Source of the DNA: Elusimicrobiota bacterium
GTDB taxonomy: Bacteria; Elusimicrobiota; Elusimicrobia; Elusimicrobiales; UBA9959
DNA: 54,712 nucleotides
Direction: 5' to 3'
NCBI GenBank assembly: GCA_027340875.1
Contig: DAIENX010000102.1
Coordinates: 1-54,712, forward strand
Positions 21,558 through 39,769 of the stretch are shown here, one piece after another. Within the stretch, counting starts at the first letter, position 1. The number at the start of each line of letters is the position of its first letter. The notes below the pieces were generated by a model that saw only the letters and a list, made by a program, of their open reading frames with translations, searched no databases and had not been told where the DNA came from. The translations under genes were made by a program, and so were the position numbers.

Positions 21558-21574
21558 AAGCAGTGCAGGGGATT

Positions 21575-22264
21575 ATGGGTAAAACTATTTCTAAAGTGAA
21601 AGTCTTGGCCTTTCTGGCAATTACTTTTACTGTTCCTGTCTCTTTGTTCTCCCAATCAGTTTCAACAAATACTATCAGGAGTAAGTGGAGTAAATCCGAC
21701 TCGAAAATATTGTATTTAGATGCATCTGGTCGTGTGGCCAAAGAGTTGGAAACAGGGAGTAAAGAGAAATTGATTACTCCGCCTACTGCCACATCTTATA
21801 TTGAAAAGTCCGGAGTGACTATTGATGGCGGAGTTAGCTCTGATGGAAATTATGCGTGGATTGATCGGCGTGAGTGGGCTTGGCTTCATGCTGGAAATCA
21901 TGGTGAGAACCTGTTCCAGTATTTTGGGCCGGACGGGAAATTGCTTTGGGAGAGAAATGATGTGTACGGTGTTGCTGTTTCCAGTGATGGTGAGCTGGTC
22001 TTTCTGTTGCAAGTCGATCCTGAATTTATAGAAACGCTAGAGTATGGGAATGGTCCTTCTGAGCCCGCCGTATATACTAGCACTGGCGGCGTTGTGGTAG
22101 AGTTACCAGATTGTGCGACATATCAGACAACATGGTATTTATCCAAGAACGGAGATAAGGCTACTGTCGAATGTTATGTTTTAGAAGATCATCGCAAACA
22201 ATTTACAGCGGTTTATGATGTGTTAAAGAGGAAATTAGCTGTTAGCGCAGTTATTTCGGACTAG
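21575..22264 (+). CDS. Hypothetical exported protein (AT-rich, left edge of island)
   Basis: Long ORF, N-terminal hydrophobic segment, beta-rich, abrupt GC drop. Confidence 0.65.
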   Translation: MGKTISKVKVLAFLAITFTVPVSLFSQSVSTNTIRSKWSKSDSKILYLDASGRVAKELETGSKEKLITPPTATSYIEKSGVTIDGGVSSDGNYAWIDRREWAWLHAGNHGENLFQYFGPDGKLLWERNDVYGVAVSSDGELVFLLQVDPEFIETLEYGNGPSEPAVYTSTGGVVVELPDCATYQTTWYLSKNGDKATVECYVLEDHRKQFTAVYDVLKRKLAVSAVISD

Positions 22265-22271
22265 GTGGTTT

Positions 22272-22620
22272 GTGAGGGCTGCCGGGGGTATGGGCTCCTC
22301 GGGCACGCGGTCTCGCACTGGCCTATGGCCGTGCCGCATCAGGCGCTATGCGCATCAAGCGGCCACCGTGCAGATGGTCGCCCGGGATTCGACGCTCGCT
22401 CATAAGCGGGCGCGCAGAAAGAGGGCCCTTGGGCCTCCGCCGGCCTCGAACTCGCTCGGCACGCAGTGCCTCGCTCAGACAGTCTCGGCCGCGGCCTTAA
22501 TGATAGGCCGTCCGCTCCGGCCGCCCGGGCCCTGCGCCCTAAAATCGCTCACGGCCGATTCTCCCTTGCCTCGCTTAGCGCTTTCAGCCAGGACTGCGTT
22601 TTGGCCGATACTTTTAAGGG
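22272..22620. repeat. GC-rich hairpin-dense non-coding element including 47-bp repeat copy 2
   Basis: GC-rich stretch inside AT-rich DNA; several short inverted repeats; shares 22318-22364 with 6076-6122. Confidence 0.55.
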
Positions 22621-22623
22621 GGG

Positions 22624-22674
22624 TTGACAAACCCCATGTATCTGCTATAATATGGTATCAAATGATACCATATT
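22624..22674 (+). promoter_or_regulatory. TA operon promoter with palindromic operator
   Basis: TTGACA-16-TATAAT (TG extended); perfect palindrome aatatggtatca-aa-tgataccatatt at 22649-22674. Confidence 0.8.
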
Positions 22675-22682
22675 GAGGGAAA

Positions 22683-23003
22683 ATGTCACAGGCAGCACCT
22701 ATGGACGGGAGTTTACGGCAGAAGATACTTCTGCTTTGTCAGTGCCCCTCAAAGGTTACGCTAACTGGTTCGGCAAAAAATGACTCCGGTCGGGTGGGGG
22801 TTACCAAAGAGGGAATATTGCGATGCATTGAAAAACACATCCAATCCGATGGGGTAATAGAAAAAATTTTACAGAAAAAAACAGGAAAACCCGCGTATCT
22901 GATGTTTATGCAGGTGTTAGCAAATAAATATTACGTTAAAGTTCAGTTCTATGGACCAGATAATAACATGATAGTCCTTTCCTTTCATCCCGCGAAATGG
23001 TAA
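22683..23003 (+). CDS. Putative MqsR-like toxin
   Basis: Small basic protein with YYVKVQF and C-terminal IVLSFH, directly upstream of an MqsA-like gene. Confidence 0.6.
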   Translation: MSQAAPMDGSLRQKILLLCQCPSKVTLTGSAKNDSGRVGVTKEGILRCIEKHIQSDGVIEKILQKKTGKPAYLMFMQVLANKYYVKVQFYGPDNNMIVLSFHPAKW

Positions 23004-23039
23004 TTAGGGAATCATTCGCATGGTTAAAGAGAGGCTGAT

Positions 23040-23585
23040 ATGAAAACAAAAATTGAAGAATGTCCAGTTTGTGGATCTAAAAATATGGTGACTGTTAGGG
23101 GGCAGCGACGCTTTCCTATTGGCGTTGATGGGAAAATCCATAATATTGTTGTAAAAGGACTGACTTGGGAGGAATGTTCTGATTGTCATGAGATTTTTTT
23201 AGATGATAATGCCACAAAGATTATTGAGGCTGCTCAATTTCAAGAATTGTCTTTGCTTAGTCCAGCAGAGTTGAAATCAATCCGGCAGGAGCTTAATTTG
23301 AGCCAGACTAGTATGGCCCGGCTTTTGGGAGTAGGTGCTAAAAGTTACTTGCGATGGGAGACTGGCCTTTCTGTGCAAAATAAGGCTATGGATAATCTGA
23401 TCCGTCTGATTGTGGAAAAATTCAAAAAGAAAGAAGAAAATACGAAATATGGGGTTGATCTCTCAGAACGTTTTGAGTATTTAGATTCTATTGAAGAGTG
23501 TCAAGAGCAAGAATCTAGTTTCCTGAATCGTACCCCAGTTGATTGTAGCCCTGTAGCGATGTATTGCGATTCTGGGAGGCATTGA
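23040..23585 (+). CDS. MqsA-family antitoxin (zinc ribbon + HTH)
   Basis: CPVCG...CSDCHE zinc ribbon, then IRQELNLSQTSMARLLGVG...RWETG HTH. Confidence 0.85.
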   Translation: MKTKIEECPVCGSKNMVTVRGQRRFPIGVDGKIHNIVVKGLTWEECSDCHEIFLDDNATKIIEAAQFQELSLLSPAELKSIRQELNLSQTSMARLLGVGAKSYLRWETGLSVQNKAMDNLIRLIVEKFKKKEENTKYGVDLSERFEYLDSIEECQEQESSFLNRTPVDCSPVAMYCDSGRH

Positions 23586-25315
23586 TGCTTAAATTTATAA
23601 CTTTCTATTCATACAAAGGCGGAGTTGGGCGGTCTCTTGCTTTGGTAAATGTTGCGCATTCGTTAGCGATGAAGGGGCGTAAAGTCGTAATTTTAGACTT
23701 TGATTTGGAGGCTCCTGGCCTTGATACAATGCTGGAATTCCAGAAGTCTAACCATGATGGCAAAGGGGTAATCGAATATATCTCGGAATATAAGCAAAAA
23801 GCAGTGCCGCCTAAAAATCTTAGGGAATACACTCGAGAGGTTATTGTTCGTGGTTCCGGAAGTATCGTGTTGATTCCTGCTGGAAAAAAAGACTCTAGCT
23901 ACCAAGTTGAGTTGAGCCGGCTAGACTGGAAAGACTTTTATAGAAAAAAAGATGGTTTTTATTTTATTGAAAATCTTAAATCTCAGATTAAAAAGGAATT
24001 TAATCCGGACTATGTTCTGATTGACTCAAGAACAGGTCTGACGGATATCGGTGGCGTATGCACATTGCATATCCCGGATATGGTGGTGTTGCTCTTCGGC
24101 TTGAACAAGCAAAATCTTGAAGGGATTGAACATGTGAAAAACACTATCCAGTGTAACCCACTGGGCAAAGAAATTGATCTGCTGTTTGTGGCTAGCCCAG
24201 TCCCGGATGGGATTAATCTTGTTGAACAGCGCATCAAAGAGGTCAAAGATAGGCTAAGGGTTGAAGAACAAAATTTCAAAATCGTCCACTATAATTCTGG
24301 GCTTGCACTAGAGGAGAAAATCGTTGTTGCCGGAGAGGCCTATCTGCCACAAAAAGCTGAATATGAGGAAATATCAGCTTGGATTATTCGTAAAAATAGT
24401 AGTGATTTCGAGAATACGCTTGAGAAATGTAGGGAAAAAATGGCCGAAGGTGCTGTCGCTGAGGCAGTGGTTGGTTATATGTCGGTCGCACGCAATTTCC
24501 CATCAAATGAGCATGTCTGTATAGAGTCGGCCAGGGCGCTTGCCTCAATGGAGAAATATAAAGAGGCTCTCGAGTGTATTGCGGGGTTGGTAAAGACTCT
24601 TCCGGATAATGCTGCATATATTCTGGAAACTGCCCGGATTTATGAGAGATGGGGAAAGAGAGCCCAGGCCACAAAAACGCTGGCAACTCTGTCTCCGAAG
24701 ATGTTTTCGAGGAATCATGGGAGATCGGTGTTGGAAGTGGCGCGGATATATGACAAATTAAAAAAGCAATCACCTGCGAGGGAATGGCTTGGTTATGCTG
24801 TTGAATTCTATACTTCAATGCCCAGTTGTATATTTGCATTTACCATTGCAGAATTCTCGATGGCTTTAAAAGAGTACTCGCTTGCAAAAGAGTTTTATGA
24901 GAAGGCATGTGAGTCAGGGGAATTTGTGCTGCCCGCTGCATACAATATGGGGTATGCGATGTATAAATTGGGGGATATCGGCTATAGGCAGAAGTTTGAA
25001 ACAGCTATCGGTCTGTTCGAAAAAGCGGCTACGAGTAATAACCCATTAATGGACGCCAATCGGTGTCAGGCGATGCATTATGCTTATAAATATCTTGGAG
25101 ATTATGAGAAGGCAATGTCGTGCCTCTCAAAAGTAAAGATGCTGTTGTTGCCCTTAAGGGATTATGGGTCCAAATTCACTTTGTTTTCCCCAACGAAATA
25201 CCGCTGGGTCACATATGTTGAGTTTTTAAAAGAAAATAAAAAAGAAACTGCTGCAATCGGTTCAATGTTAAAGAATAAAAGGGGAGGCGAAGCAGGTAGG
25301 CAAGAAAAAAAGTAG
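23585..25315 (+). CDS. KGGVGR-variant ParA/MinD-like ATPase fused to TPR repeats
   Basis: FYSYKGGVGRS, DFDLEAPGL, YVLIDSRTG; helical TPR-like C-terminal half; TGATG overlap with the antitoxin. Confidence 0.8.
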   Translation: MLKFITFYSYKGGVGRSLALVNVAHSLAMKGRKVVILDFDLEAPGLDTMLEFQKSNHDGKGVIEYISEYKQKAVPPKNLREYTREVIVRGSGSIVLIPAGKKDSSYQVELSRLDWKDFYRKKDGFYFIENLKSQIKKEFNPDYVLIDSRTGLTDIGGVCTLHIPDMVVLLFGLNKQNLEGIEHVKNTIQCNPLGKEIDLLFVASPVPDGINLVEQRIKEVKDRLRVEEQNFKIVHYNSGLALEEKIVVAGEAYLPQKAEYEEISAWIIRKNSSDFENTLEKCREKMAEGAVAEAVVGYMSVARNFPSNEHVCIESARALASMEKYKEALECIAGLVKTLPDNAAYILETARIYERWGKRAQATKTLATLSPKMFSRNHGRSVLEVARIYDKLKKQSPAREWLGYAVEFYTSMPSCIFAFTIAEFSMALKEYSLAKEFYEKACESGEFVLPAAYNMGYAMYKLGDIGYRQKFETAIGLFEKAATSNNPLMDANRCQAMHYAYKYLGDYEKAMSCLSKVKMLLLPLRDYGSKFTLFSPTKYRWVTYVEFLKENKKETAAIGSMLKNKRGGEAGRQEKK

Positions 25316-25457
25316 GAAAGTTGCTGGTGATGGGAATTTGCAGAGCATAGACAGTAATATGGAAAACATCAGCATTCTTTTTTGATGGTAAAACATGAAT
25401 AAAAAAGTGACATGGCATTTCGAAGGTTGACAATAAATTAATAGGAGGAATGGTTAA

Positions 25458-25712
25458 ATGGCAGATGATAAGAAGCCGGTGACTATAATTGTGAACGGTA
25501 CGCCACACGAGTGGCCTAGGGGATCAAAGATCTCTTATTCGGAGGTCGTTGTTTTCGAGTACTCCGACTATGCGCAGCATCCTGAAATTACGTATTCAGT
25601 CAAATACAAGAACGGGCATGGGAATAAGCCAGAAGGAACTCTGGTGCCCAGCGCAACGGTCGAGGTAAAAGAGGGGATGATCTTCAGTGTTTCAAGAACT
25701 GGTCAGTCATAA
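25458..25712 (+). CDS. Multi-ubiquitin (beta-grasp) Ubl protein
   Basis: TIIVNG...ISY.EVV...YSVKY..G...VKEGMIF.V..TGQS pattern; RBS aggagg; upstream of an E1-like gene. Confidence 0.75.
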   Translation: MADDKKPVTIIVNGTPHEWPRGSKISYSEVVVFEYSDYAQHPEITYSVKYKNGHGNKPEGTLVPSATVEVKEGMIFSVSRTGQS

Positions 25713-26532
25713 CGACGACATTAGGCGGCTGGTCGAAAAAGGCTATGCAGTCGCTTTTGATGGTGGCCACCTAATCGTGCGTGACATTCCCTATCTGGAT
25801 GCAGAACTAAAGCTCCAGATTGGGGCTATTGTTGCAGAGCTTGTCTTTGTCGACAAAACGCATGTCAAACAGAACGACCATCAGATATTTTTTGCGGGTT
25901 CCGCTCCGTTTAACTTGGATGGTAAGCCAATCCCAAATCTTGCCGGAGGGCCTACAAAACGTGTGCTAGGTGATGCGAGTAAGGATGTGGTAGTGCAGCG
26001 CTCTTTCTCGAACAAGCCGAAAGACACAGGCAAGTTTGTTGACTTCTTCGATAAAATAGAAAACTATGTCAGCATAATATCTGGTCCGGCTATTGAGTTA
26101 CACAACCCAAAGCCATATCCATACACATTCCGTGCAGTTACGGAAATTATCCCTGATTCAATCTTCAAATTCCACGACACTTTAACAAGTCGGGCAGGAA
26201 TTGGGGACTTGTCTGGTAAGCTGAAGGATGATGTTATCGCGGTTATAGGTTTGGGCGGAACAGGTGCTTACTTGCTCGATTTTTTGATTAAGACCCCGGT
26301 GAGGGAAATCCGCGCCTTCGACCTCGATCCGCTTTATGTGCATAATGCATTTCGCTCGCCTGGTAAATTAGATCCCGCTGACTTGGGCAAATCTAAAGCG
26401 GAAGTATATCATGCGAGGTATGATAATTTTCGGAATGGACTGATTGTCACTCCGAAGTTTATTGATGCTGAATGTGGTGCTGATATGGACGGGGTGACAT
26501 TTAGGGAATTGGGGTCAGGTCTTGATTCTTGA
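25687..26532 (+). pseudogene. DUF6791/E2-like + ThiF (E1) fusion, truncated at about 26503 by the island repeat
   Basis: N-terminal HLIVRDIPY...FSNKP; ThiF IAVIGLGGTG, HNAFRSPG, KAEV; the last codons (ELGSGLDS*) are repeat-derived. Confidence 0.75.
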
Positions 26533-26613
26533 CATCGAAGCCGCCGGAAAGTTCCGGCGGTTTTGTTTTTAAATTAACATAATCCACCAAAAAGGCAGCA
26601 GGAGCCTTTTTTG
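26505..26613 (+). repeat. Island repeat copy a (core + hairpin + extension shared with copy e)
   Basis: ggaattggggtcaggtcttgattcttgacatcgaagccgccggaaagttccggcggttttgttttt. Confidence 0.9.
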
Positions 26614-26736
26614 CAGGCGGGATTCGGCAACGAGTTCTCATTGGGGAGAACGTGTCCAACGTGACGCATGCGTATTTGACAATCCGCCGGTTGTCCATTA
26701 CACTATTTGCGCTTATATACTCGCGAAGTTATATTT

Positions 26737-26877
26737 ATGAGCCCATCACGCCTGAAAGGTTTACTCAAGATAACATTGTGCGTGTCACTGCCGCTTTTTG
26801 CCTGTCTCGTATCCGTTAACCCCGTCTTCGCGCGCACATCGACGGATTGGGGTCAGGTCTTGAATCTTGACATTTGA
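26737..26877 (+). pseudogene. 5' remnant of an exported-protein gene truncated by repeat copy b
   Basis: Promoter TTGACA-17-TACACT (26676-26704); MSPSRLKGLLKITLCVSLPLFACLVSVNPVFA signal peptide runs into the repeat 4 codons later. Confidence 0.55.
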
Positions 26878-26914
26878 CATCGAAGCCGCCGGAAAGTTCC
26901 GGCGGTTTTGTTTT
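26845..26914 (+). repeat. Island repeat copy b
   Basis: gattggggtcaggtcttgaatcttgacatttgacatcgaagccgccgg... with duplicated ttgacat. Confidence 0.9.
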
Positions 26915-26952
26915 GTAGAATGTTTTCGTTAGGGTGCCCGGGTATATTTTAG

Positions 26953-29900
26953 ATGAAAATATTCAAGGCCTCACTTCATATGGCCGCTTTCCTGATCTTT
27001 CACGGGGCAGTGGCTGCAATGGCACAAGCCCCTTTTAATTCGTCTTTGATCTTTGGCCAAGACATCATTACGGATGGCACGTCTGTTGCTTTGGATTCTC
27101 TGGGAAATCCGCACATCTGTTTCAATAATACAAACATGAATCTTGTGTACGCCAAACGGACAGCGAACTCCTGGATCACACAAGTGGTGGACAATGCGGC
27201 AGGAGTCGGGGAGTACTGCTCCGTCTCTTTGGATAGTTTTGATCGACCGCATATCAGTTATTATGATTCGACCAATAAGGATCTGAAATACGCCCACTGG
27301 ACAGGAACTGCCTGGGAGATCCAAACAGTTGACAGCGCGGGGGAAGTTGGCAGGTTTTCTTCTATTGCCATAGATGGCGCTGGAAATCCGCATATCAGCT
27401 ACGAAGCTGCGCTCGTGAATAAACTCAAATACGCTCACTGGACAGGGGCTGCCTGGGACGTGCAAATAGTGGCGACTGGGACAGGGGCATGGTACACCTC
27501 CATAGCTTTGGATTCTTCAGGAAATCCGAATATCAGTTATTACACCGCGATTTGGTATATTGCCGATCTCGCGTATGCCCATTGGAACGGAAGTTCCTGG
27601 GAAATACAGACCGTGGATGCGGAGGGAGATGTCGGGCTGGAGAGTTCTCTTGCGCTGGATGGGTTGGGGCGGCCTCATATCAGTTATAGGGACCTGACAA
27701 ATCTGGACCTTAAATATGCTTATTGGACCGGAAGTTTCTGGAGTACGCAGACCGTAGTAAGTTCAGGAGAACAGGGGTGGTATTCTTCTATCGCCTTGGA
27801 TGGTTCAGGGAAACCGCATATTACCTACGGAGATGGTTTAGGGCTAGCGGTAAAGTATATTTACTGGGACGGTTCTTCCTGGAATTTACAAACAGTTGAT
27901 GCTGTTACTGGCGGGCACACGTCTCTAGCTTTGGATGGCCAAGGGAACCCACATGTAAGTTACGAGGTTGGGGCGTTAGGGGTTAAATATGCGACCGCCG
28001 CTACGGGCTTTGCTCCGGCTATGGGGGGAGGGAATGGAAGAAGTCGTCCACAGGCCGCCAGTTCGTTAGGGGCAACCTTTGTCTCGACCGGGACTATTGT
28101 GTGGGGGTGGGTTGATAATGCCGTCAATGAGTTGGGATTCAGGCTATACGGCTCTCAGATCAGTTCAGGGCCATATAGTCTTGTCGCGGATACGACAAGC
28201 ATCGGCCCGGACCAAAACAACTTCACGGAAAGCGGTTTGGCGCCTAATACCACTTATTATCGTTATCTTGCGGCGGTAAATGCCGGCGGCCACGTTTTTT
28301 CCAATCTTATCAGCACAGTTACTCCGGCTTCCCAGCCTGCTCAGAGCGATCCAACTTTTATATCAGTTGATTTTACAACTATCGCAGTTCAATGGGGACC
28401 GAACGGCAATCCGCTCGGAACTAAATACGCTCTGCTGACCTCCACCGGAGCTGATCCGGGAGTAAATGGTTTTTCCGGAAATTTGATCTCTATCGTTTCT
28501 AATTCTCAAGCCGACATCGGGTCTTTAAAAGATGGCACAACCTATTTTTTTGCGGTTAAAGCCGTCGGGCATAATGGATATTCGACACCGTATACAAACA
28601 TCGGTTCCACTAGGACCCTGGCTTTAACCACGCCGGATCCCTTCGGCACTGCACTGGGGGTCTCCTCCATTGCCTGGAGTTGGACTGATGGGGCCTATGA
28701 AAGCGGCTATCGGGTCATCAACTCAAGCGATGAAATTCTGTCCGGTGATCTGTCACCGGGAGCGACTTCATGGCTTGAGGGCGGTCTTTCGACCAACACA
28801 GTCTATAGCCGCAGGGTTCTAGCGTTCGCGCCGGTCCTTGCCGCAACTTCCGCTCCGGTTTCCGTCTACACTTTGGCCGTGCCGCCGGAGGGGAGCTACG
28901 TGTCGCAGGCGAGTTCTTCCTCGGTATCTTTGGCCTGGTCGGCCAACTCCAACCCGGGATATACGGTCTATGAGATATCGCGGTCAACCGACGGCTTCTC
29001 GACCTCGTTCTCCACGCCTGTCCCTTACGGGAGCTCCTTTACTGGCACGGACTATTCGGACTCGGGTCTGTTGCCGGAAACGACATATTTTTACCGGATC
29101 AGGGCTTATAACGGCGATGCGGTCCCTACGGATTTTGACTCAGTAGTTTCAACCATTACGCGGCCGGCATTGCCGAATGTCGCGGTTATTTCGCCTGGCA
29201 GCATTGGTATTTCATCCACCGCCATCAATTGGAATTGGAGCATCCAGACCCCTCCCTCGATAACCGGAGTGCGAGTGGTTTCTTCTACCGGGGGGGCGTT
29301 GTCGGGGGATCTCCCTGGGTCTGCTACTTATTACGTCCAAGCCGGCCTTTCCGCTAACGCCAGTTCACAGGTTATGATCGAGGTTTTCAATATTACAGGG
29401 GTTTCCACCTCCGCACCAGTAATTCGCTATGCTTTGGCCAATTCCCCGGTAAGCCCTGAGGTCACAGAGGTTGCCATTACCTCGGCTTCCATTTGCTGGG
29501 GGAGTAATTCAAACCCCGCTTATACGACTTATGACATTGGCGTTTGGGAGGCGGATTCTTCCACGGTCACCATGCGGGTGTCCACGTGCTGCACCAATAT
29601 CACCGGGCTTTATTCGGGAACCACCTATTTCTTCTCTGTTACGGAAGTTAACGGAAACGGGGTGGGGGGGCAAGGGACGGCGGGGATATCTACCGTGACC
29701 CGCCAGGTCCCTTATCTGGGGATTGTTTTTCCGGGGGCGCCGGCAACTGTATCGTACCACTCTTCGCACGGCGAAGTCTCGATAGGGATATCCCCCGGGG
29801 CGTTCGGCGAAACGGTACAGCTTGCGGCTTCGGCACCGGGCGCATACCCTCCTGATACGTCACTGATGGGAGAGCTGCGCGGTTCAGGCGCGGGGGTGGA

Positions 29901-30402
29901 GATAGCTCTGGATAAGCCATTGCAGCCCTCAAATAAGGTTCGGCTGACCGTATCCTATCGTGATGCGGATGTGTCTGGTATGGACGAGAACAAACTGCTC
30001 TTGGCCCGCTATGATACGGCCGGCGGAGTATGGGTTCCGCTGGTTTCCTATCCTGATCCGGATAACAACAGGGTAATGGCATTGGTCGACCATTTTTCCA
30101 CGTTCCAGATAATGCAGGCCATCCCATCCGCGTCTGTTAAAGAGGTTAAGGTGTCGCCCAACCCGTTGCGGCCCGCCCTAGGCCATACGGCCATGGTGTT
30201 CTCCAACCTGCCGGGTTTCGCGGTGTTGCGGATCTATTCTTTGTCGGGGTCGCTTATCCGGGAAATACATGCGGGCGCGGGGGGGATAGCCAGCTGGGAC
30301 GGCAGGAACAAGTCAGGGGTATACGTGGCAAGCGGTGTATACTTTGTCTTCGCGGAGAAGGGCGGCGATAAAAGGACCTTTAAGGTGGCGGTACAGAGAT
30401 AA
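26953..30402 (+). CDS. Large secreted protein: beta-propeller-like repeats, FN3 domains, T9SS-like/FlgD-Ig C-terminal sorting domain
   Basis: Repeats SIALDxxGNPHISY...LKYAHW; FN3 motifs (L.P.TTYY.R); C-terminal SPNP...IYSLSG.LIR...WDGRN.SG..VASGVYF. Confidence 0.8.
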   Translation: MKIFKASLHMAAFLIFHGAVAAMAQAPFNSSLIFGQDIITDGTSVALDSLGNPHICFNNTNMNLVYAKRTANSWITQVVDNAAGVGEYCSVSLDSFDRPHISYYDSTNKDLKYAHWTGTAWEIQTVDSAGEVGRFSSIAIDGAGNPHISYEAALVNKLKYAHWTGAAWDVQIVATGTGAWYTSIALDSSGNPNISYYTAIWYIADLAYAHWNGSSWEIQTVDAEGDVGLESSLALDGLGRPHISYRDLTNLDLKYAYWTGSFWSTQTVVSSGEQGWYSSIALDGSGKPHITYGDGLGLAVKYIYWDGSSWNLQTVDAVTGGHTSLALDGQGNPHVSYEVGALGVKYATAATGFAPAMGGGNGRSRPQAASSLGATFVSTGTIVWGWVDNAVNELGFRLYGSQISSGPYSLVADTTSIGPDQNNFTESGLAPNTTYYRYLAAVNAGGHVFSNLISTVTPASQPAQSDPTFISVDFTTIAVQWGPNGNPLGTKYALLTSTGADPGVNGFSGNLISIVSNSQADIGSLKDGTTYFFAVKAVGHNGYSTPYTNIGSTRTLALTTPDPFGTALGVSSIAWSWTDGAYESGYRVINSSDEILSGDLSPGATSWLEGGLSTNTVYSRRVLAFAPVLAATSAPVSVYTLAVPPEGSYVSQASSSSVSLAWSANSNPGYTVYEISRSTDGFSTSFSTPVPYGSSFTGTDYSDSGLLPETTYFYRIRAYNGDAVPTDFDSVVSTITRPALPNVAVISPGSIGISSTAINWNWSIQTPPSITGVRVVSSTGGALSGDLPGSATYYVQAGLSANASSQVMIEVFNITGVSTSAPVIRYALANSPVSPEVTEVAITSASICWGSNSNPAYTTYDIGVWEADSSTVTMRVSTCCTNITGLYSGTTYFFSVTEVNGNGVGGQGTAGISTVTRQVPYLGIVFPGAPATVSYHSSHGEVSIGISPGAFGETVQLAASAPGAYPPDTSLMGELRGSGAGVEIALDKPLQPSNKVRLTVSYRDADVSGMDENKLLLARYDTAGGVWVPLVSYPDPDNNRVMALVDHFSTFQIMQAIPSASVKEVKVSPNPLRPALGHTAMVFSNLPGFAVLRIYSLSGSLIREIHAGAGGIASWDGRNKSGVYVASGVYFVFAEKGGDKRTFKVAVQR

Positions 30403-30403
30403 T

Positions 30404-31321
30404 ATGGCCTTATTCCTGATATTGCTTATCTTCCTGACGGCGCCGCCGGCGAGCGCGTCTTTTAACGCTGCGGCGAAAGGCACCTCTTCCGCCGGTTTCC
30501 TCACCCTTGGCTCCGGGGCGAGGGGGGTGGCGATGGGCGGGGCCTATTCTGCCGTTGTCGATAACGCCGAAGCCATGTTCTGGAATCCAGCGGCGTTGCT
30601 GCGCGTGAAGAACAGGTCCGTCACCTTCATGCATGCGGCATATATAGCTTCGACCTATTATGACTACGGGGCGTATGTACAGAATTTGGGCGATGAAGAT
30701 GCTTTCGGTGTCGGGTTGCAATATTTTTCTTCAGGCGACATGATGGAAACCGATGTGAACGGCGTCGATCTGGGGAAGTTTTCCCCTGATGATTACTCTT
30801 TGTCGTTCGGCTACGCTATGCTGGTGCGCGATATTAAACTTGGGTTCGTTCTCAAGTATGTGCATTCCACGATACTTTCTACCGCTAAGACGGTTGCCTC
30901 GGATATAGGTGTAATGTTCCCGCCTGTTTACGATGGGAAAGTGAGATTTGCGGTAGTGGGTTCGAATATCGGGGGAGGGCTGAAATATGAAGAGAAGACG
31001 GAAGCGCTGCCAGGGATAGTGAAGCTTGGCGGAGTGTATACAAGCAATGGCTTCGGATTATATAGTCTGGATGTCGGATTTCCGCAAGATGACTCCCCGT
31101 ATTTAGCGATGGGATATGAATATCCCCTACGAATGAGTGATCCTTGGAGACTGCTGGTCAGGTGTGGATTCAACTCTCAGACTGTAGGTGATATCAAAGG
31201 ATTTACCGGCGCTTCTTTCGGCTTCGGGGTGGGTTACGATAAGTACGTTTTTGATTATGCTTTTTCCCCGTTGGGGGATCTTGGGGCCGCTCACCGTATG
31301 GCCGTTTCCGTAAAGTTCTGA
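30404..31321 (+). CDS. PorV/PorQ-family outer-membrane beta-barrel
   Basis: FLTLGSGARGVAMGGAY, FWNPAAL, C-terminal DYAF.P.GDLG..HR...VKF. Confidence 0.8.
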   Translation: MALFLILLIFLTAPPASASFNAAAKGTSSAGFLTLGSGARGVAMGGAYSAVVDNAEAMFWNPAALLRVKNRSVTFMHAAYIASTYYDYGAYVQNLGDEDAFGVGLQYFSSGDMMETDVNGVDLGKFSPDDYSLSFGYAMLVRDIKLGFVLKYVHSTILSTAKTVASDIGVMFPPVYDGKVRFAVVGSNIGGGLKYEEKTEALPGIVKLGGVYTSNGFGLYSLDVGFPQDDSPYLAMGYEYPLRMSDPWRLLVRCGFNSQTVGDIKGFTGASFGFGVGYDKYVFDYAFSPLGDLGAAHRMAVSVKF

Positions 31322-31377
31322 AAAGATTTATCCACTTCCGCCTCCTCCAGGTGGCCTACCATCAGCCGATTGGCCGC

Positions 31378-31492
31378 GGAATCGTGGTCAGGTCTTGAAT
31401 CTTGACATCGAAGCCGCCTGCGGGAGAATTGGGGTCAGGTCTTGATTCTTGACATCGAAGCCGCCGGGGAAAATGCCCGGCGGTTTTGTTTT
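31378..31492 (+). repeat. Island repeat tandem copies c1 (truncated) and c2
   Basis: ggtcaggtcttgaatcttgacatcgaagccgcc followed by gaattggggtcaggtcttgattcttgacatcgaagccgccgggg... Confidence 0.9.
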
Positions 31493-31549
31493 GTCCCGAC
31501 AGGCCGTTGACGGGGTGGGCTGCTATGCTATCTGTGGGAAGGGGGGCTT

Positions 31550-32056
31550 ATGTCCAAGGACGTTATCCCGCAGGAAGCGCTGGAGTTGAAGATACTGCTT
31601 GTTCGCGGCCATAAGGTGATGCTGGACCGCGACCTGGCCGCGCTGTACGGGGTGGAAACGCGGGTTCTGAATCAGGCTGTTCGCCGCAATATCAGGCGAT
31701 TCCCGAAAGACTTTATGTTCTCGTTGACCCGGGAAGAGATCGGGAACTTATCACAATTTGTGACAAGTTCCCGGATAAAGCACGCCCCTAATGTGTTCGC
31801 ATTCACGGAACATGGCATAGCGATGCTTTCCAGCATATTGAAGAGCGAACGGGCCGTTCAGGTTAATATCCATATAGTGCGTGCTTTCGTGAGGCTGCGC
31901 GGTCTTCTGGCCTCGCATCGGGACCTTGCCCGCAGGTTGGACGAGCTGGAGCGGAAATACGACTCACAGTTCAAGAGCGTGTTCGACGCCATCAAGGCGC
32001 TGATGGAGCCGCCTGACGGCCCTGAACCGAAGAGGATCACTGGCTTCAAGCCGTAG
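31550..32056 (+). CDS. ORF6N-domain DNA-binding protein, paralog 1
   Basis: RGHKVMLDRDLAALYGVET..LNQAVRRN..RFP.DFMF.L, FTEHGIAMLSS.L.S. Confidence 0.9.
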   Translation: MSKDVIPQEALELKILLVRGHKVMLDRDLAALYGVETRVLNQAVRRNIRRFPKDFMFSLTREEIGNLSQFVTSSRIKHAPNVFAFTEHGIAMLSSILKSERAVQVNIHIVRAFVRLRGLLASHRDLARRLDELERKYDSQFKSVFDAIKALMEPPDGPEPKRITGFKP

Positions 32057-32156
32057 CTGTATCCGAAGCCGCCGGGGGAAAACCCCGGCGGTTTTGTTTT
32101 GTCCCGACAGGCCCTTGTCGGCGTCGCATGCTATGTTATTTATGGGAAGGGAGGGT

Positions 32157-32237
32157 ATGTCGAAGGATATTATCCCGCAGGAAGTATTGGAATCCAAGAT
32201 ACTGCTTATACGCGGCCACAGGGTGATGCTGGACCGA
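32157..32237 (+). pseudogene. Truncated ORF6N paralog (first 27 codons)
   Basis: MSKDIIPQEVLESKILLIRGHRVMLDR followed immediately by the island repeat; promoter and RBS intact. Confidence 0.85.
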
Positions 32238-32413
32238 GGAATTGGGGTCAGGTCTTGATTCTTGACATCGGGGACTTGGGGTCAGGTCTTGAATCTTGAC
32301 ATCGAAGCCGCCGGGGGAAAAGCCCGGCGGTTTTGGTTTTTGTAGAATGGAATTGGGGTCAGGTCTTGAAACCTGACATCGAAGCCGCCGGGGAAGCCCG
32401 GCGGTTTTGTTTT
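32238..32413 (+). repeat. Island repeat tandem copies d1, d2, d3
   Basis: Three ttggggtcaggtcttga...tgacatcg units at about 32238, 32272 and 32349. Confidence 0.9.
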
Positions 32414-32465
32414 AAAAAGACAGCAGCAGTCTGCAGACTGGAGAACTTTGCTTTAATTTGTGGCC

Positions 32466-33923
32466 CTATGGCCGCTTGTTAGGTGTCAGTTCAACTGTAA
32501 TGGAGTCGGCTTCGCTGTAAATACGTCCGGGTCTTGCCGCTTTGAAAGATACTTTTTCTCCATTGATCTGCAATTCCCGGAAAGATACCCCTTGCGGGGA
32601 TGGGGATGTCTCTTTTCCGTCAACCAGAATCTTCACTTGTCCTTCCCCGATGTTGCCTTCGATCAGAGTCGGATATATAACCGCTCCGCGCAAATCGCGG
32701 ATGGGTTTTATCTTTAGATTCTTTTTCATAACAGACGTGTTCCTGAAAATCAGGCGCAGCGTTGTGTCCCGGAGAAACTCCATTGTGGAGACCGAAGGGT
32801 AAAATACCCCGTCGTTTGTTTTTACCGGTTGTTTGTCGCCTGAAAAACCTTCATCCGTAAAAGTCCTGGCATCCCAGCTTATCAAGGACAGCTTTCCACG
32901 TCCAGCCGAAAAACTTTTTGCGTCGGCTGCCGCAGTTCTGCTCATGGCGGCATTAACGTTTTCAAAGGAGGCAACAAGTGCCTGATAGTTGTACTTTTTA
33001 TAAGTCTTATCGATCTGGGCGCTGTCTGGCAGGCCGGTCCTGTATTGTTCCAGCGCTAACTGATAGATTGGTGTGCCTGCTTCTAGTCTCGACTTCCAGG
33101 GAGCGCGCAATCTGTCTAACAGGCGCATTTGAGCCGCGCCGGTTAAGTAGTATTTAACTTTATCGTTCTGTTTCTCCACCGGCATTAACAGCATATTTGC
33201 CAGAAACGTATCCGGCGATGTGGTGATACTGCCGGCTTTTCCGGCTGGTTCCGAGTATTTCAGCTCTACATATTGGGCGGACCCTTCCAGTCTCTCGCTT
33301 TGATCTTCCCAGGCCGTTGCCCCGGTATCTTGACGTTTAAGACGATCTCGTCTTGCCGCCAGAAAGAGCCTGAAGTCGTCCTGCCAGCTATCGGGAGAAA
33401 TTAATGCTTTTGCAAGCAACAACTCCTCAATGTAGAAAGCCGCGTGTTGCGCCGCGCTTGACGTTGCGGGTTTTGCTGCCGGCACGGCCGCAAACCTGTT
33501 GTGCTGGAAAGAATGGAATGTCTCATGGGAAACAAGATTCAATGTGCTCTCCGGCGTGGCGCCCAACAGACGCCTGACATAAAACACTGGAACACCATCA
33601 TACACATATTCCGACAAAAAAACGGATTCAGCCGGCCGTTGGAATCGGGGGTTCTTGTAAACGGGGAGAGCGTTACCCTTGTCTATGCGTGTAAATCCTT
33701 TCGTGGGTTTCGGGTAATTTATGAGGTATCCGGCACCGGTTTCATCAGCCAGTAAGATGGGCCTTTCAAGAGGTGAATAACCCGGCCAGACCGGGACAGC
33801 ATTTTTATGCTTATCGATGAGTTTGTCAACAACATCTTCTGCCGCCGAATGACGCTGTTCGCCGGCAGAGAGGATGTTTAAGCTGAGCAGCGCGATGGGC
33901 AGAAAAACAGAGGATTTAATCAT
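32466..33923 (-). CDS. Exported protein with HExxH motif (putative zinc metallopeptidase-like)
   Basis: Start MIKSSVFLPIALL; SHETFHSFQ and downstream EGSAQYVE. Confidence 0.65.
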   Translation of the reverse strand: MIKSSVFLPIALLSLNILSAGEQRHSAAEDVVDKLIDKHKNAVPVWPGYSPLERPILLADETGAGYLINYPKPTKGFTRIDKGNALPVYKNPRFQRPAESVFLSEYVYDGVPVFYVRRLLGATPESTLNLVSHETFHSFQHNRFAAVPAAKPATSSAAQHAAFYIEELLLAKALISPDSWQDDFRLFLAARRDRLKRQDTGATAWEDQSERLEGSAQYVELKYSEPAGKAGSITTSPDTFLANMLLMPVEKQNDKVKYYLTGAAQMRLLDRLRAPWKSRLEAGTPIYQLALEQYRTGLPDSAQIDKTYKKYNYQALVASFENVNAAMSRTAAADAKSFSAGRGKLSLISWDARTFTDEGFSGDKQPVKTNDGVFYPSVSTMEFLRDTTLRLIFRNTSVMKKNLKIKPIRDLRGAVIYPTLIEGNIGEGQVKILVDGKETSPSPQGVSFRELQINGEKVSFKAARPGRIYSEADSITVELTPNKRP

Positions 33924-34482
33924 AACAATGCTGGATACACTCGCATTTGTGTGTGTAGACAATATGGTTCCAACAGGTATAGATATACCTGCAGCTGTCC
34001 GGAACAAGCCCGGTAGGATCACAAACCCAATCCCACTTACAGTCTTCTACCCATTGTTCATCATCATCGCAATGGAATAACTGTGGACCGCTCCAGTTTT
34101 CATAAGAATGTCGATTCGCCGCATCCGTCAGGAACATCCTGGGCGGGATGACCATCCCGCGCAACTCCTGTGCGGAAATCTGATTGGCGGGAGAACCGTG
34201 ATAACAGTATAAGTTCGGCGTAGTAAAACAATTGAAAGAATCCGTGATTGTCGCCGTGCCTTTTTTTATTGATACTACCACTTCGGCTGAGTGGCGAAGA
34301 GATGTTTCCGACCCAGTTGACACCGGCACCGCCGGGCATGCATTAGGGAAAGTCTGTGGTGTTTCCAGCAGCAAGCGTTCCGCTTGTGCTAACTCTACTT
34401 CAAAACTTGTCTTGTTGTTGCCGGCAAAAGTGCTGCCAACAGAAGTAGCGAATATCGTAAGGCAGAGCGCAATGATTTTCAT
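33916..34482 (-). CDS. Secreted Cys-rich hypothetical protein
   Basis: Signal peptide MKIIALCL...TFA; Cys/Trp-rich C-terminus; RBS-like ggggga. Confidence 0.65.
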   Translation of the reverse strand: MKIIALCLTIFATSVGSTFAGNNKTSFEVELAQAERLLLETPQTFPNACPAVPVSTGSETSLRHSAEVVVSIKKGTATITDSFNCFTTPNLYCYHGSPANQISAQELRGMVIPPRMFLTDAANRHSYENWSGPQLFHCDDDEQWVEDCKWDWVCDPTGLVPDSCRYIYTCWNHIVYTHKCECIQHCYD

Positions 34483-34717
34483 TTAGTTCTTCCCCCCATA
34501 AAAAAACGGGAAAGCGGGTTAATTCGCTTTCCCTGGATACACCGGATTAAGGTCCGGTCGTGGATACTTCGGGGCCAATTCCCCGAATTACAAGGAGACT
34601 ACAATTAAAGTTTAGCTGATAGTGGTTACGTGTGGAAGTGTCTTTGGACCTATTGGGTTCTGGGCCCTCGTTTTCCCGCAGTTGAATTCTCCCATTACTG
34701 GCGCAATTTCTTCCGGG

Positions 34718-34856
34718 GGAATTGGGGTCAGGTCTTGATTCTTGACATCGAAGCCGCCGGAAGGTTCCGGCGGTTTTGTTTTTAAATTAACATAATCCAC
34801 CAAAAAGGTAGCTGCTACCTTTTTCAACCCTTAAAAGGCAGCAGGAGCCTTTTTTG
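34718..34856 (+). repeat. Island repeat copy e with extra palindrome
   Basis: Near-identical to copy a plus a 30-bp insert containing aaaaaggtagc-t-gctaccttttt. Confidence 0.9.
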
Positions 34857-34913
34857 ACCACGACAGGCGGTTGTCGGGGTGCTCTGATATGCTATCAGTA
34901 GGAAGGGGGGCTT

Positions 34914-35432
34914 ATGTCCAAAGACGTTATCCCGCAGGAAGCGCTGGAGTCGAAGATACTGCTTATTCGCGGCCACAGGGTAATGCTGGACCGAGACCTG
35001 GCCGCGCTGTACGGGGTTGAGACCCGCATGTTGAATCAGGCGGTGAAGCGGAACAGTAAGCGGTTTCCGGAAGATTTTGTGTTCAGATTGACTGCAGCGG
35101 AGACTTCGGTTTGGGTATCACAATTTGTGATACCCAATTCAAAGATCAAAAAAGGCTTAAGAATAAGTCCGCTTGCCTTTACCGAGAACGGCGTAGCCAT
35201 GCTCTCGAGCGTTCTTAACAGCCCCCGTGCCATAGCGGTGAACATCCAGATAATGCGCATGTTCACGCGGCTGCGGGGGCTGCTGGCCTCTCACCGCGAT
35301 CTGGCGCGCAGGATGGATGAGCTGGAGAAGAAATACGACGCGCAGTTCAAGAGCGTCTTCGACGCGATAAGGGCGCTGATGGAGCCGCCGGATGGCCCGG
35401 AGCCTAAGAGGATAACCGGCTTCAAGCCGTAA
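34914..35432 (+). CDS. ORF6N-domain DNA-binding protein, paralog 2
   Basis: Same ORF6N motifs; core WVSQFVIPN. Confidence 0.9.
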   Translation: MSKDVIPQEALESKILLIRGHRVMLDRDLAALYGVETRMLNQAVKRNSKRFPEDFVFRLTAAETSVWVSQFVIPNSKIKKGLRISPLAFTENGVAMLSSVLNSPRAIAVNIQIMRMFTRLRGLLASHRDLARRMDELEKKYDAQFKSVFDAIRALMEPPDGPEPKRITGFKP

Positions 35433-35512
35433 TAAAAACCCGGCGGTTTTGTTTTGTCCCGACAGGCGGTTGTCGGGGTCTCCTGCTATGCTATCTGTGG
35501 GAAGGGGGGCTT

Positions 35513-36022
35513 ATGTCCAAAGACGTTATCCCGCAGGAAGTGCTGGAGTCGAAGATACTGCTTGTTCGCGGCCACAGGGTGATGCTCGACCGTGACCTGG
35601 GCGCGCTGTACGGGGTCGGAACCCGTGATCTGAATAAAGCGGTTTCACGTAATATGGAGCGGTTCCCGGAGGACTTCATGTTCCGCCTGGACGGGTCAGA
35701 GCTGGAAAACTTGATGTTCCAATTTGGAACATCAAGTTGGGGCGGGACCAGAAAGCCCCCGAGGGTGTTTACCGAACATGGGATATTGATGCTGTCCTCG
35801 GTGCTTAAAAGCCGGCGCGCCATAGCGGTGAACATCCAGATAATGCGTACTTTCACGCGGTTGCGCGGGCTGCTGGCCTCAAGTAGGGATCTTGCCCGCA
35901 AGGTGGCCGAGCTCGAGAAGAAATACGACGCGCAGTTCAAGAGCGTCTTCGACGCGATAAGGGCGCTGATGGAGCCGCCTGACGGCCCGGAGCCCAAGAA
36001 GATAACCGGCTTCAAACCATAA
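35513..36022 (+). CDS. ORF6N-domain DNA-binding protein, paralog 3
   Basis: Same ORF6N motifs; core LMFQFGTSS. Confidence 0.9.
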   Translation: MSKDVIPQEVLESKILLVRGHRVMLDRDLGALYGVGTRDLNKAVSRNMERFPEDFMFRLDGSELENLMFQFGTSSWGGTRKPPRVFTEHGILMLSSVLKSRRAIAVNIQIMRTFTRLRGLLASSRDLARKVAELEKKYDAQFKSVFDAIRALMEPPDGPEPKKITGFKP

Positions 36023-36049
36023 TAAAACCCCGGCGGTTTTGTTTTTGGG

Positions 36050-36227
36050 GAACATATCACATTTTGTGATATGTTCAAGGTCGCAATTTGCGGCCTTGAA
36101 ACTTGAAGTGCCAATTTGGCACCTCAAACTGGGTGGATAACTGGGTATCGCAAAATGCGATACCTGATTTGGCGGTCACAAACTGTGACCTCAAACCGAA
36201 TCTTTAAGGTTCCAAATTGGAACTTTA
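36050..36227 (+). repeat. Array of six palindromes, each resembling an ORF6N variable-core coding fragment
   Basis: Palindromes at 36050-36076, 36074-36100, 36103-36127, 36144-36164, 36174-36190 and 36205-36227, all centred on CA-nnn-TG. Confidence 0.85.
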
Positions 36228-36288
36228 GAAACTCGACATCCCCTTGGCGGGTTGGTCTGCCAGGATATAAGCGGGAAAGGGGGGCGAT

Positions 36289-36798
36289 ATGAAAGAGGTT
36301 ATATCCCTGGAGATGATCGAGCAAAAGATATACTTTATTCGGGGACACAGGGTCATGCTGGATAGTGATCTGGCGGAAATGTACGAGGTGCCGACAGGGC
36401 ATCTTAATAGGGCGGTTATCCGAAATATCGAAAGTTTCCCGTCTGATTTTATGTTCCAGCTTTCGGAGCGGGAATACCGGTCTTTAAGATGCCGATCTGG
36501 CATCTTAAAGCGCGGGACTCATTCCAAGTATCTGCCGCGTGTTTTCATGGAGCAGGGAGTCGGCATGCTGTCCAGTGTGCTCAAGAGCAAACGTGCCCGG
36601 CAGGTGAATATCCATATCATGCGGGCTTTCGTTAAGCTTCGCCGGCTTCTTAATACTCACAAGGAACTGTCCCGAAAGCTGGAAGAATTGGAAAAGAAAT
36701 ATGACGCCCAGTTCAAGAGCGTGTTCGACGCCATCAAGGCGCTGATGGAGCCGCCGGATGGCCCGGAGCCCAAGAAGATAACCGGCTTCAAGCCGTAA
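36289..36798 (+). CDS. ORF6N-domain DNA-binding protein, paralog 4
   Basis: Same ORF6N motifs; core LRCRSGILK. Confidence 0.9.
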   Translation: MKEVISLEMIEQKIYFIRGHRVMLDSDLAEMYEVPTGHLNRAVIRNIESFPSDFMFQLSEREYRSLRCRSGILKRGTHSKYLPRVFMEQGVGMLSSVLKSKRARQVNIHIMRAFVKLRRLLNTHKELSRKLEELEKKYDAQFKSVFDAIKALMEPPDGPEPKKITGFKP

Positions 36799-37590: not shown

Positions 37591-37738
37591 CCGGAGGGAG
37601 TTCCGGGGGGAGTTCAGGAGCCACAATATTTAATTAGCGCCGCCGGGGAAAAGCCCGGCGGTTTTGTTTTGGGGCGGGGGGGCGATTTAGTATTATCGCA
37701 TAATGGAAAATCATTGCGGGCAGCGGTTCCGCTGAACT

Positions 37739-39623: not shown

Positions 39624-39769
39624 TACCGCCGCCTACAGGACCGCCGGGGAAGCCCGGCGGTTTTGTTTTGGGGCGGGGCTGTCCCGCCGTATGGAGATAG
39701 CCTTTCCGGGCGATTCCCCTTTTTATCCTCAGCGGTTATAATTTCCTTGGGGTTGGGTTAGGGGGGCGT

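Follow-up and report, generated by a model that had tools for sequence, protein, structure and literature searches.

Solo, co-oriented arms of a probable TIRtron terminal inverted repeat at truncated genes in a low-GC island of an Elusimicrobiota genome

TIRtrons consist of TIRYT genes bracketed by terminal inverted repeats (TIRs) that have the sequence GGGGWSAS in common (PMC3733652, PMC6006769). The TIRYTs of Di Nocera et al. 2013 (PMC3733652) are, according to Quentin et al. 2018 (PMC6006769), the TnpA-Y1 subclass 2.1, for which Table 1 of the latter paper gives a long protein with the motifs NH[YF]H and Y...NP and a C-terminal helix-turn-helix (HTH). The published TIR families are moderately abundant, occur as singles, dimers and groups and show no simple correlation with the presence of the gene (Di Nocera et al., PMC3733652). 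Here, we describe a repeat present in eight co-oriented copies in a 54,712-nt contig of an Elusimicrobiota genome (contig DAIENX010000102.1, C69 in our numbering, of assembly GCA_027340875.1; the contig over its full length is called the window). The genome (G000) is metagenome-assembled and comprises 2.8 Mb in 112 contigs, with 92% completeness and 5.5% contamination. The repeat is very probably the TIR of a TIRtron, that is, of a gene for a Y1/HUH transposase of the TIRYT type (TnpA-Y1 subclass 2.1), resembling the REP-associated tyrosine transposases (RAYTs) of repetitive extragenic palindromic (REP) sequences. The element family is thus a known one, and what is unusual is that its arms stand alone and co-oriented, each fused to a terminator, in an island of low GC content. 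An earlier note on this DNA had taken the repeat for a new boundary element, a view that gives way to that of a TIR family which normally forms inverted pairs.

The 27-mer GGGGTCAGGTCTTGAWTCTTGACATCG matches the window eight times with at most three mismatches (at 26511, 26849, 31384, 31431, 32244, 32278, 32355 and 34724), throughout on the + strand, and not one of 100 dinucleotide-preserving shuffles gave any match; the eight co-oriented copies listed in the earlier note are therefore confirmed. With the 5' extension added, the units start at 26505 (a), 26845 (b), 31378 (c1), 31425 (c2), 32238 (d1), 32272 (d2), 32349 (e) and 34718 (h). The extension is GGAATT in a, d1, e and h, GGATT in b, GGAATC in c1, AGAATT in c2 and GGGACTT in d2. 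Eight of the 19 genomic copies of a 23-mer core (up to two mismatches) lie inside 8.3 kb of the window, and a looser genome search with up to five substitutions returned 22 copies. The outer edge of the repeat is sharp (GGAATT|GGGG, with GGAATT as the 6 nt ahead of GGGG); the inner side (CATCGAAGCCGCC and onwards) is conserved, and the outer side is different at every copy.

Six copies (a, b, c2, d2, e and h) are followed on their 3' side by a GC-rich hairpin with a stem of 13-15 bp and a T-run, laid out as CATCG-AAGCCGCCGG-loop-CCGGCGG-TTTTGTTTT; the earlier observation that a hairpin usually follows the motif is correct to this extent, c1 being partial and d1 having no hairpin. Extension, 27-nt TIR and this stereotyped intrinsic terminator together make a unit of ~66-72 nt which, as read from the sequence, stops two reading frames within 27 nt and the third shortly past the hairpin, and which would also terminate transcription. 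Units a and h are 94% identical over 108 nt. The junction of d2 and e reads ...tgtagaatg|GGAATT, and unit b runs on as ...tgtagaatgttttcg; because b continues where d2 stops, the boundary of e is fixed to within 1 nt, and d2 does keep the tgtagaatg flank known from after copy b, as had been noted. Target duplications are not visible at any of the eight window copies. Unit b carries a 7-nt duplication inside its TIR (TCTTGACATTTGACATCG, 26865-26880).

The assignment to TIRtrons comes from related genomes. Two inverted variant copies in genome G147 enclose a 284-aa open reading frame (ORF) encoding a Y1_Tnp protein, and a search with this protein in 80 genomes of the family returned 30 loci, the flanks of which were scanned for the motif. 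Where the Y1 gene was at least 49% identical to that of G147, the motif or a close variant was present at the flanks in 10 of 12 loci (the exceptions being L058 and L065); where it was at most 43% identical, it was present in none of 18, with a three-mismatch match 1 kb off in one of these (L066). In three of the ten positive loci only one side is visible, the gene being partial or the contig ending there. The usual arrangement is a copy that covers the final 15 nt of the ORF and a second one ~75 nt before the start codon ATG, both with GGGG facing outwards. Arms of exactly the window type flank the L060 and L061 genes on both sides and the L059 gene on one. The link of the motif to RAYT-like Y1/HUH transposases, which the earlier note had suggested from the look of the repeat, is thereby established. 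The motif stands beside such genes in relatives and not in the window genome, whose sole Y1 gene has other repeats.

Proteins of this cognate clade pass NF047646, the curated NCBI model for REP-associated tyrosine transposases (88.0 and 83.7 bits, cut-off 80). A cognate protein of 282 aa has the motifs GNHYH and RYVVLNP and ends in ...SRRMSRFKT*, the final residues being encoded by the arm, and has a weak HTH_23-like match at its C-terminus (residues 244-275, E 1.8e-4, under the Pfam cut-off). The relatives' elements therefore resemble TIRtrons in the ~280-aa Y1/HUH transposase with NHYH, Y..NP and C-terminal HTH, in the position of the gene between TIRs that start with GGGGWSAS and one of which overlaps the 3' end of the ORF, in the scattering of TIRs as singles, dimers and groups, and in a patchy spread across phyla. 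The window TIR itself starts with GGGGTCAG, which fits the consensus. It differs from TIRtrons in that the window has solo arms only, in one orientation and each with an intrinsic terminator, clustered in one island at truncated genes, and in that the assembly holds no cognate gene. With less assurance than for the identity of the repeat, we consider it probable that the eight copies are solo left TIR arms, that the element has its outer end at their sharp left edge, and that one local arm lineage has multiplied in a single orientation within the low-GC variable or defence island.

Several other systems were compared. Like REP sequences, REPINs and their RAYTs (PMC3116915 and PMC3479197), the family has a related HUH enzyme, one that passes the NCBI RAYT model, and non-autonomous inverted doublets that fold as long hairpins. 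REP singlets and co-oriented tandem arrays are described for Pseudomonas by Bertels and Rainey 2011 (PMC3116915). In contrast to REP sequences, the arm starts with GGGG and has no 5' GT[AG]G tag, the only GTAG lying 3' of the terminator in b and d2, and the single window arm is not palindromic: it folds with -1.4 kcal/mol (z -0.05), compared with -25.4 kcal/mol (z -3.8) for an inverted pair. Furthermore, REP sequences are lineage-specific, and the TIR arm is letter-perfect across phyla. IS91 and ISCR elements move by one-ended transposition with one precise and one variable end, have no inverted-repeat pairs, mobilise or delete neighbouring genes and encode their Y2 HUH transposases in cis. 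The window segments are similar to these in having one precise and one variable end and no inverted-repeat pairs; a Y2 (IS91-type) transposase was not found among the window ORFs, and PF04986 had no match in the genome, nor in the control genomes. A classical miniature inverted-repeat element of a DDE transposon was rejected: TIR pairs do exist, but neither the window copies nor a filled site compared with its empty counterpart shows a target-site duplication. IS200/IS605 elements, which according to PMC6006769 have a TnpA of ~150 aa with a Y...Q motif and carry a subterminal hairpin near each end, both pointing the same way, are ruled out by the 282-aa protein, the Y..NP motif and the inverted-repeat ends.

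Of 201 genomes of the order, 39 have the motif, the window genome among them; by group, these are 28 of the 42 genus genomes, 37 of the 79 in family f1 and none of the 119 in family f2. Copies in these genomes are mainly inverted pairs with 7-90 nt between them, and in relatives such pairs, which form hairpins, are scattered through intergenic DNA. Outside the array, the window genome also has mostly close inverted pairs (C1:51946/52008, C4:3362/3422, C11:22434/22487 and C80:1559/1644), and the arms of the last enclose the terminator hairpin of the window units and gtagaatg. In a collection of species-representative genomes, at least 126 stretches contain the exact 23-mer, and by record titles they come from at least 13 phyla; among the matches listed are Elusimicrobia, Acidobacteriota, Nitrospirota, Desulfobacterota, Chloroflexota, Planctomycetia, Actinomycetota, Synergistota, Omnitrophota, Bipolaricaulota, Nitrospinota, Methylomirabilota, Gammaproteobacteria and Patescibacteria. 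An inverted partner lies within 150 nt of 70 of the 146 copies in those listed stretches, and several copies stand directly ahead of a transposase start. A 23-nt TIR that is letter-perfect in at least 13 phyla points to a wide horizontal spread of the element and to a very strong constraint on its ends. The family has also moved within the genus, since a pair located between a stop codon and the next start (C1:51944 in the window genome) occupies the same site in G129 and G135, and G035 and G127 lack it there. This filled-versus-empty site shows no target duplication, in agreement with the window copies and with the lack of flanking duplications reported in the earlier note.

At the left edges of the units, genes stop in the middle (Table 1). 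The E1 ORF (25687-26532) contains DUF6791 and only positions 17-90 of the 238 of ThiF (Pfam). Relatives of E1 are ~531 aa long and 68% identical along the whole fragment; the alignment ends at residue 272 (...GVTF), after which the window ORF reads RELGSGLDS*, encoded by the repeat. Only two bases (ag, 26503-26504) separate the last homologous codon from GGAATT. The remaining part of E1 was not found elsewhere in the assembly, and among the 43 genus genomes searched E1 occurs in one, the window genome; because it is missing from the 42 others, a direct orthologous comparison of its junction is impossible. JGI metagenome contigs gave no exact match to a 27-mer taken from the junction on its E1 side. 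The ubiquitin-like system made up of Multi_ubiq and E1 is presumably dead. The second gene is an ORF6N paralogue, the stub of which is 84% identical to the start of the intact copy at 31550. A third ORF, at 26737, resembles the start of a signal-peptide gene and has a good promoter, and contig C3 carries a paralogue of the region upstream of it (81% identity); a full-length homologue was not found, and for this reason its truncation is only presumed. Two of the three mid-gene edges that had been claimed are thus real, and the third is likely. The homology of the cut partner stops 0-2 nt from GGAATT at E1, at ORF6N, at d2|e and at d1, with possible microhomology at some of them (TTT(AG) at E1, overlaps of 1 nt at d1 and e). 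A left edge also abuts a truncated sister copy of the repeat, d1, which ends at ...GACATCG.

A related species, G135, provides a comparison. On its contig C71, HlyIII is 94% identical to that of the window, and the 3' 2.6 kb of the fn3 gene and PorV are 81% identical and syntenic. The order on this contig is ORF6N, half a terminator, the right flank found after unit a (module M), an intact 373-aa gene, a degenerate TIR 3 nt past the stop of this gene, terminator, M, fn3 (954 aa), PorV, TIR, terminator, gtagaat, a 192-aa gene and HlyIII. The same TIR and terminator modules therefore stand behind intact genes in G135, with different cargo, and the distance from the PorV-TIR to HlyIII is 0.6 kb in G135 versus 6.3 kb in the window genome. 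Cargo order does vary between genomes, as had been supposed; serial gene capture, which had been suggested along with it, is not shown, the fn3/PorV pair being syntenic in the two species.

What has to be explained is a fixed outer edge with a conserved inner side, joined in one orientation and without duplications to arbitrary outer partners 0-2 nt away. Homology-driven exchange between copies cannot make new outer junctions, and thus something has to break or join DNA at that edge. Since the outer edge is where the transposase acts on its end, the transposase is a candidate for this activity. HUH enzymes cut one strand and remain linked to the 5' side. For TnpA-REP of E. coli, a covalent 5'-phosphotyrosine end that can be joined to any 3'-OH was proposed in the discussion of Messing et al. 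2012 (PMC3479197). As the most likely mechanism we infer that an HUH enzyme nicked specifically at the end and that one-ended rejoining followed, and/or that units were inserted and then recombined with other copies. That nicking and rejoining by the transposase caused the junctions is a plausible assumption, short of a probable one.

According to this proposal, the outer end of the TIR would have been nicked repeatedly by a transposase that is now absent from the assembly or was left unbinned, and the enzyme would have stayed bound to the 5' end on the TIR side. A foreign 3'-OH could then be joined to the end of the arm, whereby the DNA to the left would be replaced and arm and terminator would stay in place. 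Joining to an upstream 3' end would result in a deletion, as at E1, and joining to other ends in patches such as c1 or tandem heads such as d1-d2-e. The outcome would be truncated genes, truncated sister copies and reshuffled blocks, all without target duplications, and recombination among the co-oriented units would add further deletions and the mosaic of TIR variant, loop and right flank. The stop codons and the terminator in the unit may make such joints harmless. More tentatively, the array might record, as a natural footprint, one-ended strand transfer by an HUH enzyme of the TIRYT/RAYT type that nicks the outer edge of a single arm and remains covalently attached to the arm, with the end of a nascent strand as a possible 3'-OH. 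One-ended strand transfer, the mechanism put forward in the earlier note, is a hypothesis that fits the anatomy and has a precedent in the E. coli RAYT proposal (PMC3479197, discussion).

If this were true, a lone arm with its terminator would be a portable "gene-end" module that could delete, truncate and re-join blocks of a defence island, and the "domesticated" transposases would have a role in restructuring genomes, one so far only proposed from in vitro work on E. coli. The TIR ends fused to terminators would then punctuate the defence island and help to erode it, here by disabling the Multi_ubiq/E1 system. The junctions form a clean set with an uncut state in a related species, and they yield a testable prediction of cleavage site and polarity for the TIRYT class. 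For annotation, the motif is to be read as the mark of TIRtron ends and not as a new class of recombination site.

A number of observations weigh against transposase nicking as the source of the joints. The cognate transposase was not found in the window genome assembly; the only Y1 gene there (C111:16320-16931, L082) belongs to another clade, being 42% identical to the cognate one. The locus syntenic to that of the G135 transposase carries 6.2 kb of other DNA in the window genome. A transposase would therefore have to act in trans, as the earlier note had it, or have acted in the past. Loci of the cognate clade are frequently found on short contigs or at contig ends in the family genomes, and with a bin that is 92% complete the gene may have been missed. 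To our knowledge, there is no biochemistry on TIRYTs at all, and solo arms that have no partner arm and do not fold alone may not be substrates. Direct head-to-tail arms were found in only two of 80 family genomes, the window genome and G025. Arms in relatives are usually found only a few bases from where a complete gene stops, or supply its stop codon, so truncation is not a general property of the element and the truncating array is a local peculiarity. The c2 left flank (ctgcgg(g)AGAATT) is common to G135 and the 54-nt c1 segment is extra in the window genome, which makes c1 look like the newcomer and the c2 junction old, the opposite of the earlier claim that c2 cut c1. At E1, the bases TTT and ag resemble the ...TTTTAGC ahead of GGAATT in G135, and this junction may represent a microhomology deletion that ended a few bases outside the unit. 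Finally, public 31-mer contigs break inside the repeats, and the order of the blocks across the repeats is not fixed by them; one contig each in runs X1 and X3 even takes a path from 31385 to 32280 via a shared 33-mer.

The use of relatives' ORFs that run into a TIR as a proxy for truncation was abandoned. Both ORFs with Pfam domains among the eight scanned are complete, a type III polyketide synthase (L025:1505-3007, -; C-terminal domain complete to 150/151) and an AAA_14-DUF4143 ATPase (L037:1512-2846, -), and the other six have no informative family. In L025 and L037 the TIR supplies the final residues and the stop (...GSGLDS* or ...GVRS*). The Y1 gene on C111 reaches 60 bits on NF047646, under the cut-off, and has a different repeat containing AAAGGTACCTGGTACC on both flanks.

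The main rival to nicking and rejoining is that a unit or pair transposed into a gene or a sister copy and that homologous recombination with a downstream co-oriented copy then deleted the DNA between them, leaving the 5' part of the gene, a hybrid unit and a foreign right flank. The units are 66-110 nt long and 80-100% alike, enough for recombination; TIR variants (A, T, AAAC), hairpin loop and right flank occur in mosaic combinations among a, b, c2, d2, e, h and two G135 copies; and the family does move, a paired copy being present in some relatives and absent in others. However, about six independent insertions into the middle of a gene or unit within 8 kb would be needed, each plus a deletion, and neither the window nor the loci read hold a gene that is split by a unit with both halves kept. 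In addition, solo units are not known to be mobile, as is the case for REP singlets (PMC3116915). We regard this explanation as unlikely on its own.

A smaller rival, and an improbable one, involves no transposase: the GC-rich terminator hairpin would stall replication and provoke slippage, microhomology deletions and template switches nearby. Stems of 13-15 bp, the short microhomologies mentioned above for E1, d1 and e, and the similarity of c1 to a templated patch that carries 15 nt of foreign left flank would all be in line with it. The end-points, however, coincide with the outer TIR edge, which precedes the hairpin foot by 31-33 nt, and the same 6-nt extension, GGAATT, recurs in a, d1, e and h. 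Moreover, 34 of the 42 terminators of this type in the genome have no TIR, and no truncations were noticed at those read.

An artefact, by which a metagenome assembler would have joined unrelated pieces at a common repeat, is very improbable. The genome is a metagenome assembly with 5.5% contamination, 33-55 identical bases are repeated at every junction, and the behaviour of the public contigs described above adds to the suspicion. Four public DNA runs of one study, one of which may be the source of the window DNA, hold 93-97% of sampled words, and in contigs of these four runs unique left DNA is joined to the TIR: the 31-mer contigs (Logan) reach ~29 nt into the TIR from unique DNA at a (26200-26533), d1 (31996-32267) and h (32384-34746). 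A 338-nt contig (26566-26903) comprising M, the stub and unit b bridges the junction of stub and b, the depth is even (~14-20x in run X1), and no variants were seen. Furthermore, the nested c1/c2 and d1/d2/e arrangements fit within one read length, and the independent G135 assembly has the same joints of TIR, terminator and M and of PorV and TIR. The junctions are real as sequences; for the order of the blocks the support is the original assembly together with the G135 contig, which is parallel in part. We read the 31385 to 32280 joint as an ambiguous graph path, with 33 nt common to both sides, and not as a strain variant.

Integron arrays have a tyrosine-recombinase integrase next to folded, co-oriented attC sites, which close the gene blocks at their 3' ends and have R''/R' cores with a consensus of the GTTRRRY type. 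An integron-like, integrase-free cassette array, in which the repeat would be the attachment site of a site-specific recombinase, is hardly conceivable despite co-oriented, hairpin-containing sites at the 3' ends of gene blocks and cargo that varies between species, since the repeat belongs to a Y1 transposase, a Pfam scan of 55 window ORFs revealed no integrase, recombinase or transposase domain, the blocks come with promoters of their own, with a riboswitch and with genes in both orientations instead of being promoterless cassettes, and truncated genes at the joints are unlike site-specific cassette exchange. No core of the GTTRRRY type was seen on reading the window repeats, and the window contains no tRNA or tmRNA gene as an attachment site.

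Table 1. Positions of the repeat units, truncated genes, cargo and terminators in the window
Feature	Position	Strand	Description
Defence-like block	18435-26532		45-50% GC; 1040-aa UvrD/PD-(D/E)XK helicase-nuclease (GajB-like), three small ORFs without family, MqsA-like HTH, ParA-TPR protein (PADLOC PDC-M28B), Multi_ubiq, cut E1
E1-like gene, 5' half (DUF6791-ThiF)	25687..26502	+	after Multi_ubiq gene (25458-25712); cut past residue 272 of ~531
Unit a	26505..26570	+	GGAATT, TIR (26511-26537), terminator hairpin and T-run; runs into right flank "module M" to ~26611
Signal-peptide-like stub	26737..26844	+	N-terminus of ~36 codons; promoter region 26635-26727; ends at unit b
Unit b	26844..26923	+	GGATT, TIR with 7-nt internal duplication, terminator, gtagaatg
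Cargo between b and c1	26953..31321	+	1149-aa fn3 / type IX secretion tail protein and PorV-like protein
Unit c1	31378..31418	+	partial: GGAATC, TIR and CATCGAAGCCGCC; stops at 31418 within left arm of hairpin
Unit c2	31419..31492	+	left flank ctgcgggAGAATT (same in G135), TIR, terminator, then ORF6N promoter hairpin
Cargo between c2 and d1	31550..32056	+	intact ORF6N gene (PADLOC candidate family PDC-S05)
ORF6N paralogue stub	32157..32237	+	27 codons of ~168; ends at unit d1 (...gaccga|GGAATT)
Unit d1	32238..32270	+	GGAATT, TIR and ATCG only, without hairpin; stops at 32270 directly past ...GACATCG
Unit d2	32271..32348	+	GGGACTT, TIR, terminator, tgtagaatg
Unit e	32349..32413	+	GGAATT, TIR variant (...GAAACCTGAC, perfect 7-bp stem), terminator
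Cargo between e and h	32466..34598	-	operon of 518-aa and 188-aa proteins without family, behind riboswitch 34528-34598
Unit h	34718..34824	+	GGAATT, TIR, terminator, module M
Three further tandem ORF6N paralogues	34914..36798	+	right of unit h: 34914-35432, 35513-36022, 36289-36798
Terminator copies	26536-26570, 31456-31492, 32064-32100, 37639-37671, 39641-39671, 43848, 45907, others		

The array lies in a part of the window (~18-38 kb) with 45-54% GC, and the window flanks have 64-70% and the genome 63.6%. The four intact ORF6N paralogues (PDC-S05, E 5e-52) and the stub are 68-84% identical at the DNA level, each with its own promoter module and terminator; in one case only the right half of the terminator is left (35433-35460). 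The terminator hairpin is a separate repeat family (...CCGCCGG-loop-CCGGCGGTTTTGTTTT) with 42 strict copies in the genome, 24 of them on the window contig and C80, and a TIR precedes only eight of the 42. Dozens of genus genomes, in which the genes are only 70-80% alike, share terminator stretches of 30-34 nt at 100% identity, and the terminator repeat family could be mobile or an uptake-sequence-like signal.

Two further interpretations of the motif were discarded. It contains TTGACA, but as a sigma-54-like or sigma-70 promoter it lacks a properly spaced -10 box, save for an incidental one at c1/c2. The only Rfam match was DUF3800-III at 32308-32404, which with 25.6 bits is below its threshold of 43.8 and was taken as a chance or hairpin-driven match.

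The promoter module of the ORF6N genes consists of a hairpin, CCCGACA-N6-TGTCGGGG, followed by TG-N-TATGCTAT/TATACTAT and a ribosome-binding site, and in the window it lies at 31493-31549, 32101-32156, 34860-34913 and 35460-35512. The same module was found upstream of TIRYT genes in relatives (L054-L064) and of several unrelated genes of the window genome (C2, C11, C22 and C79). A loose regular expression for it gave 207 matches, mostly noise, a handful of which look genuine by eye. The riboswitch ahead of the operon between e and h (34528-34598, - strand) is of the purine / 2'-dG-II type (RF03165, 85.8 bits, gathering score 60). The operon encodes a Cys-rich secreted protein of 188 aa and a 518-aa protein, both without a Pfam or NCBIfam family, which is an unusual cargo for the purine class. 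The leader (~34494-34676) recurs with 78-89% identity at more than 25 places across the genus genomes.

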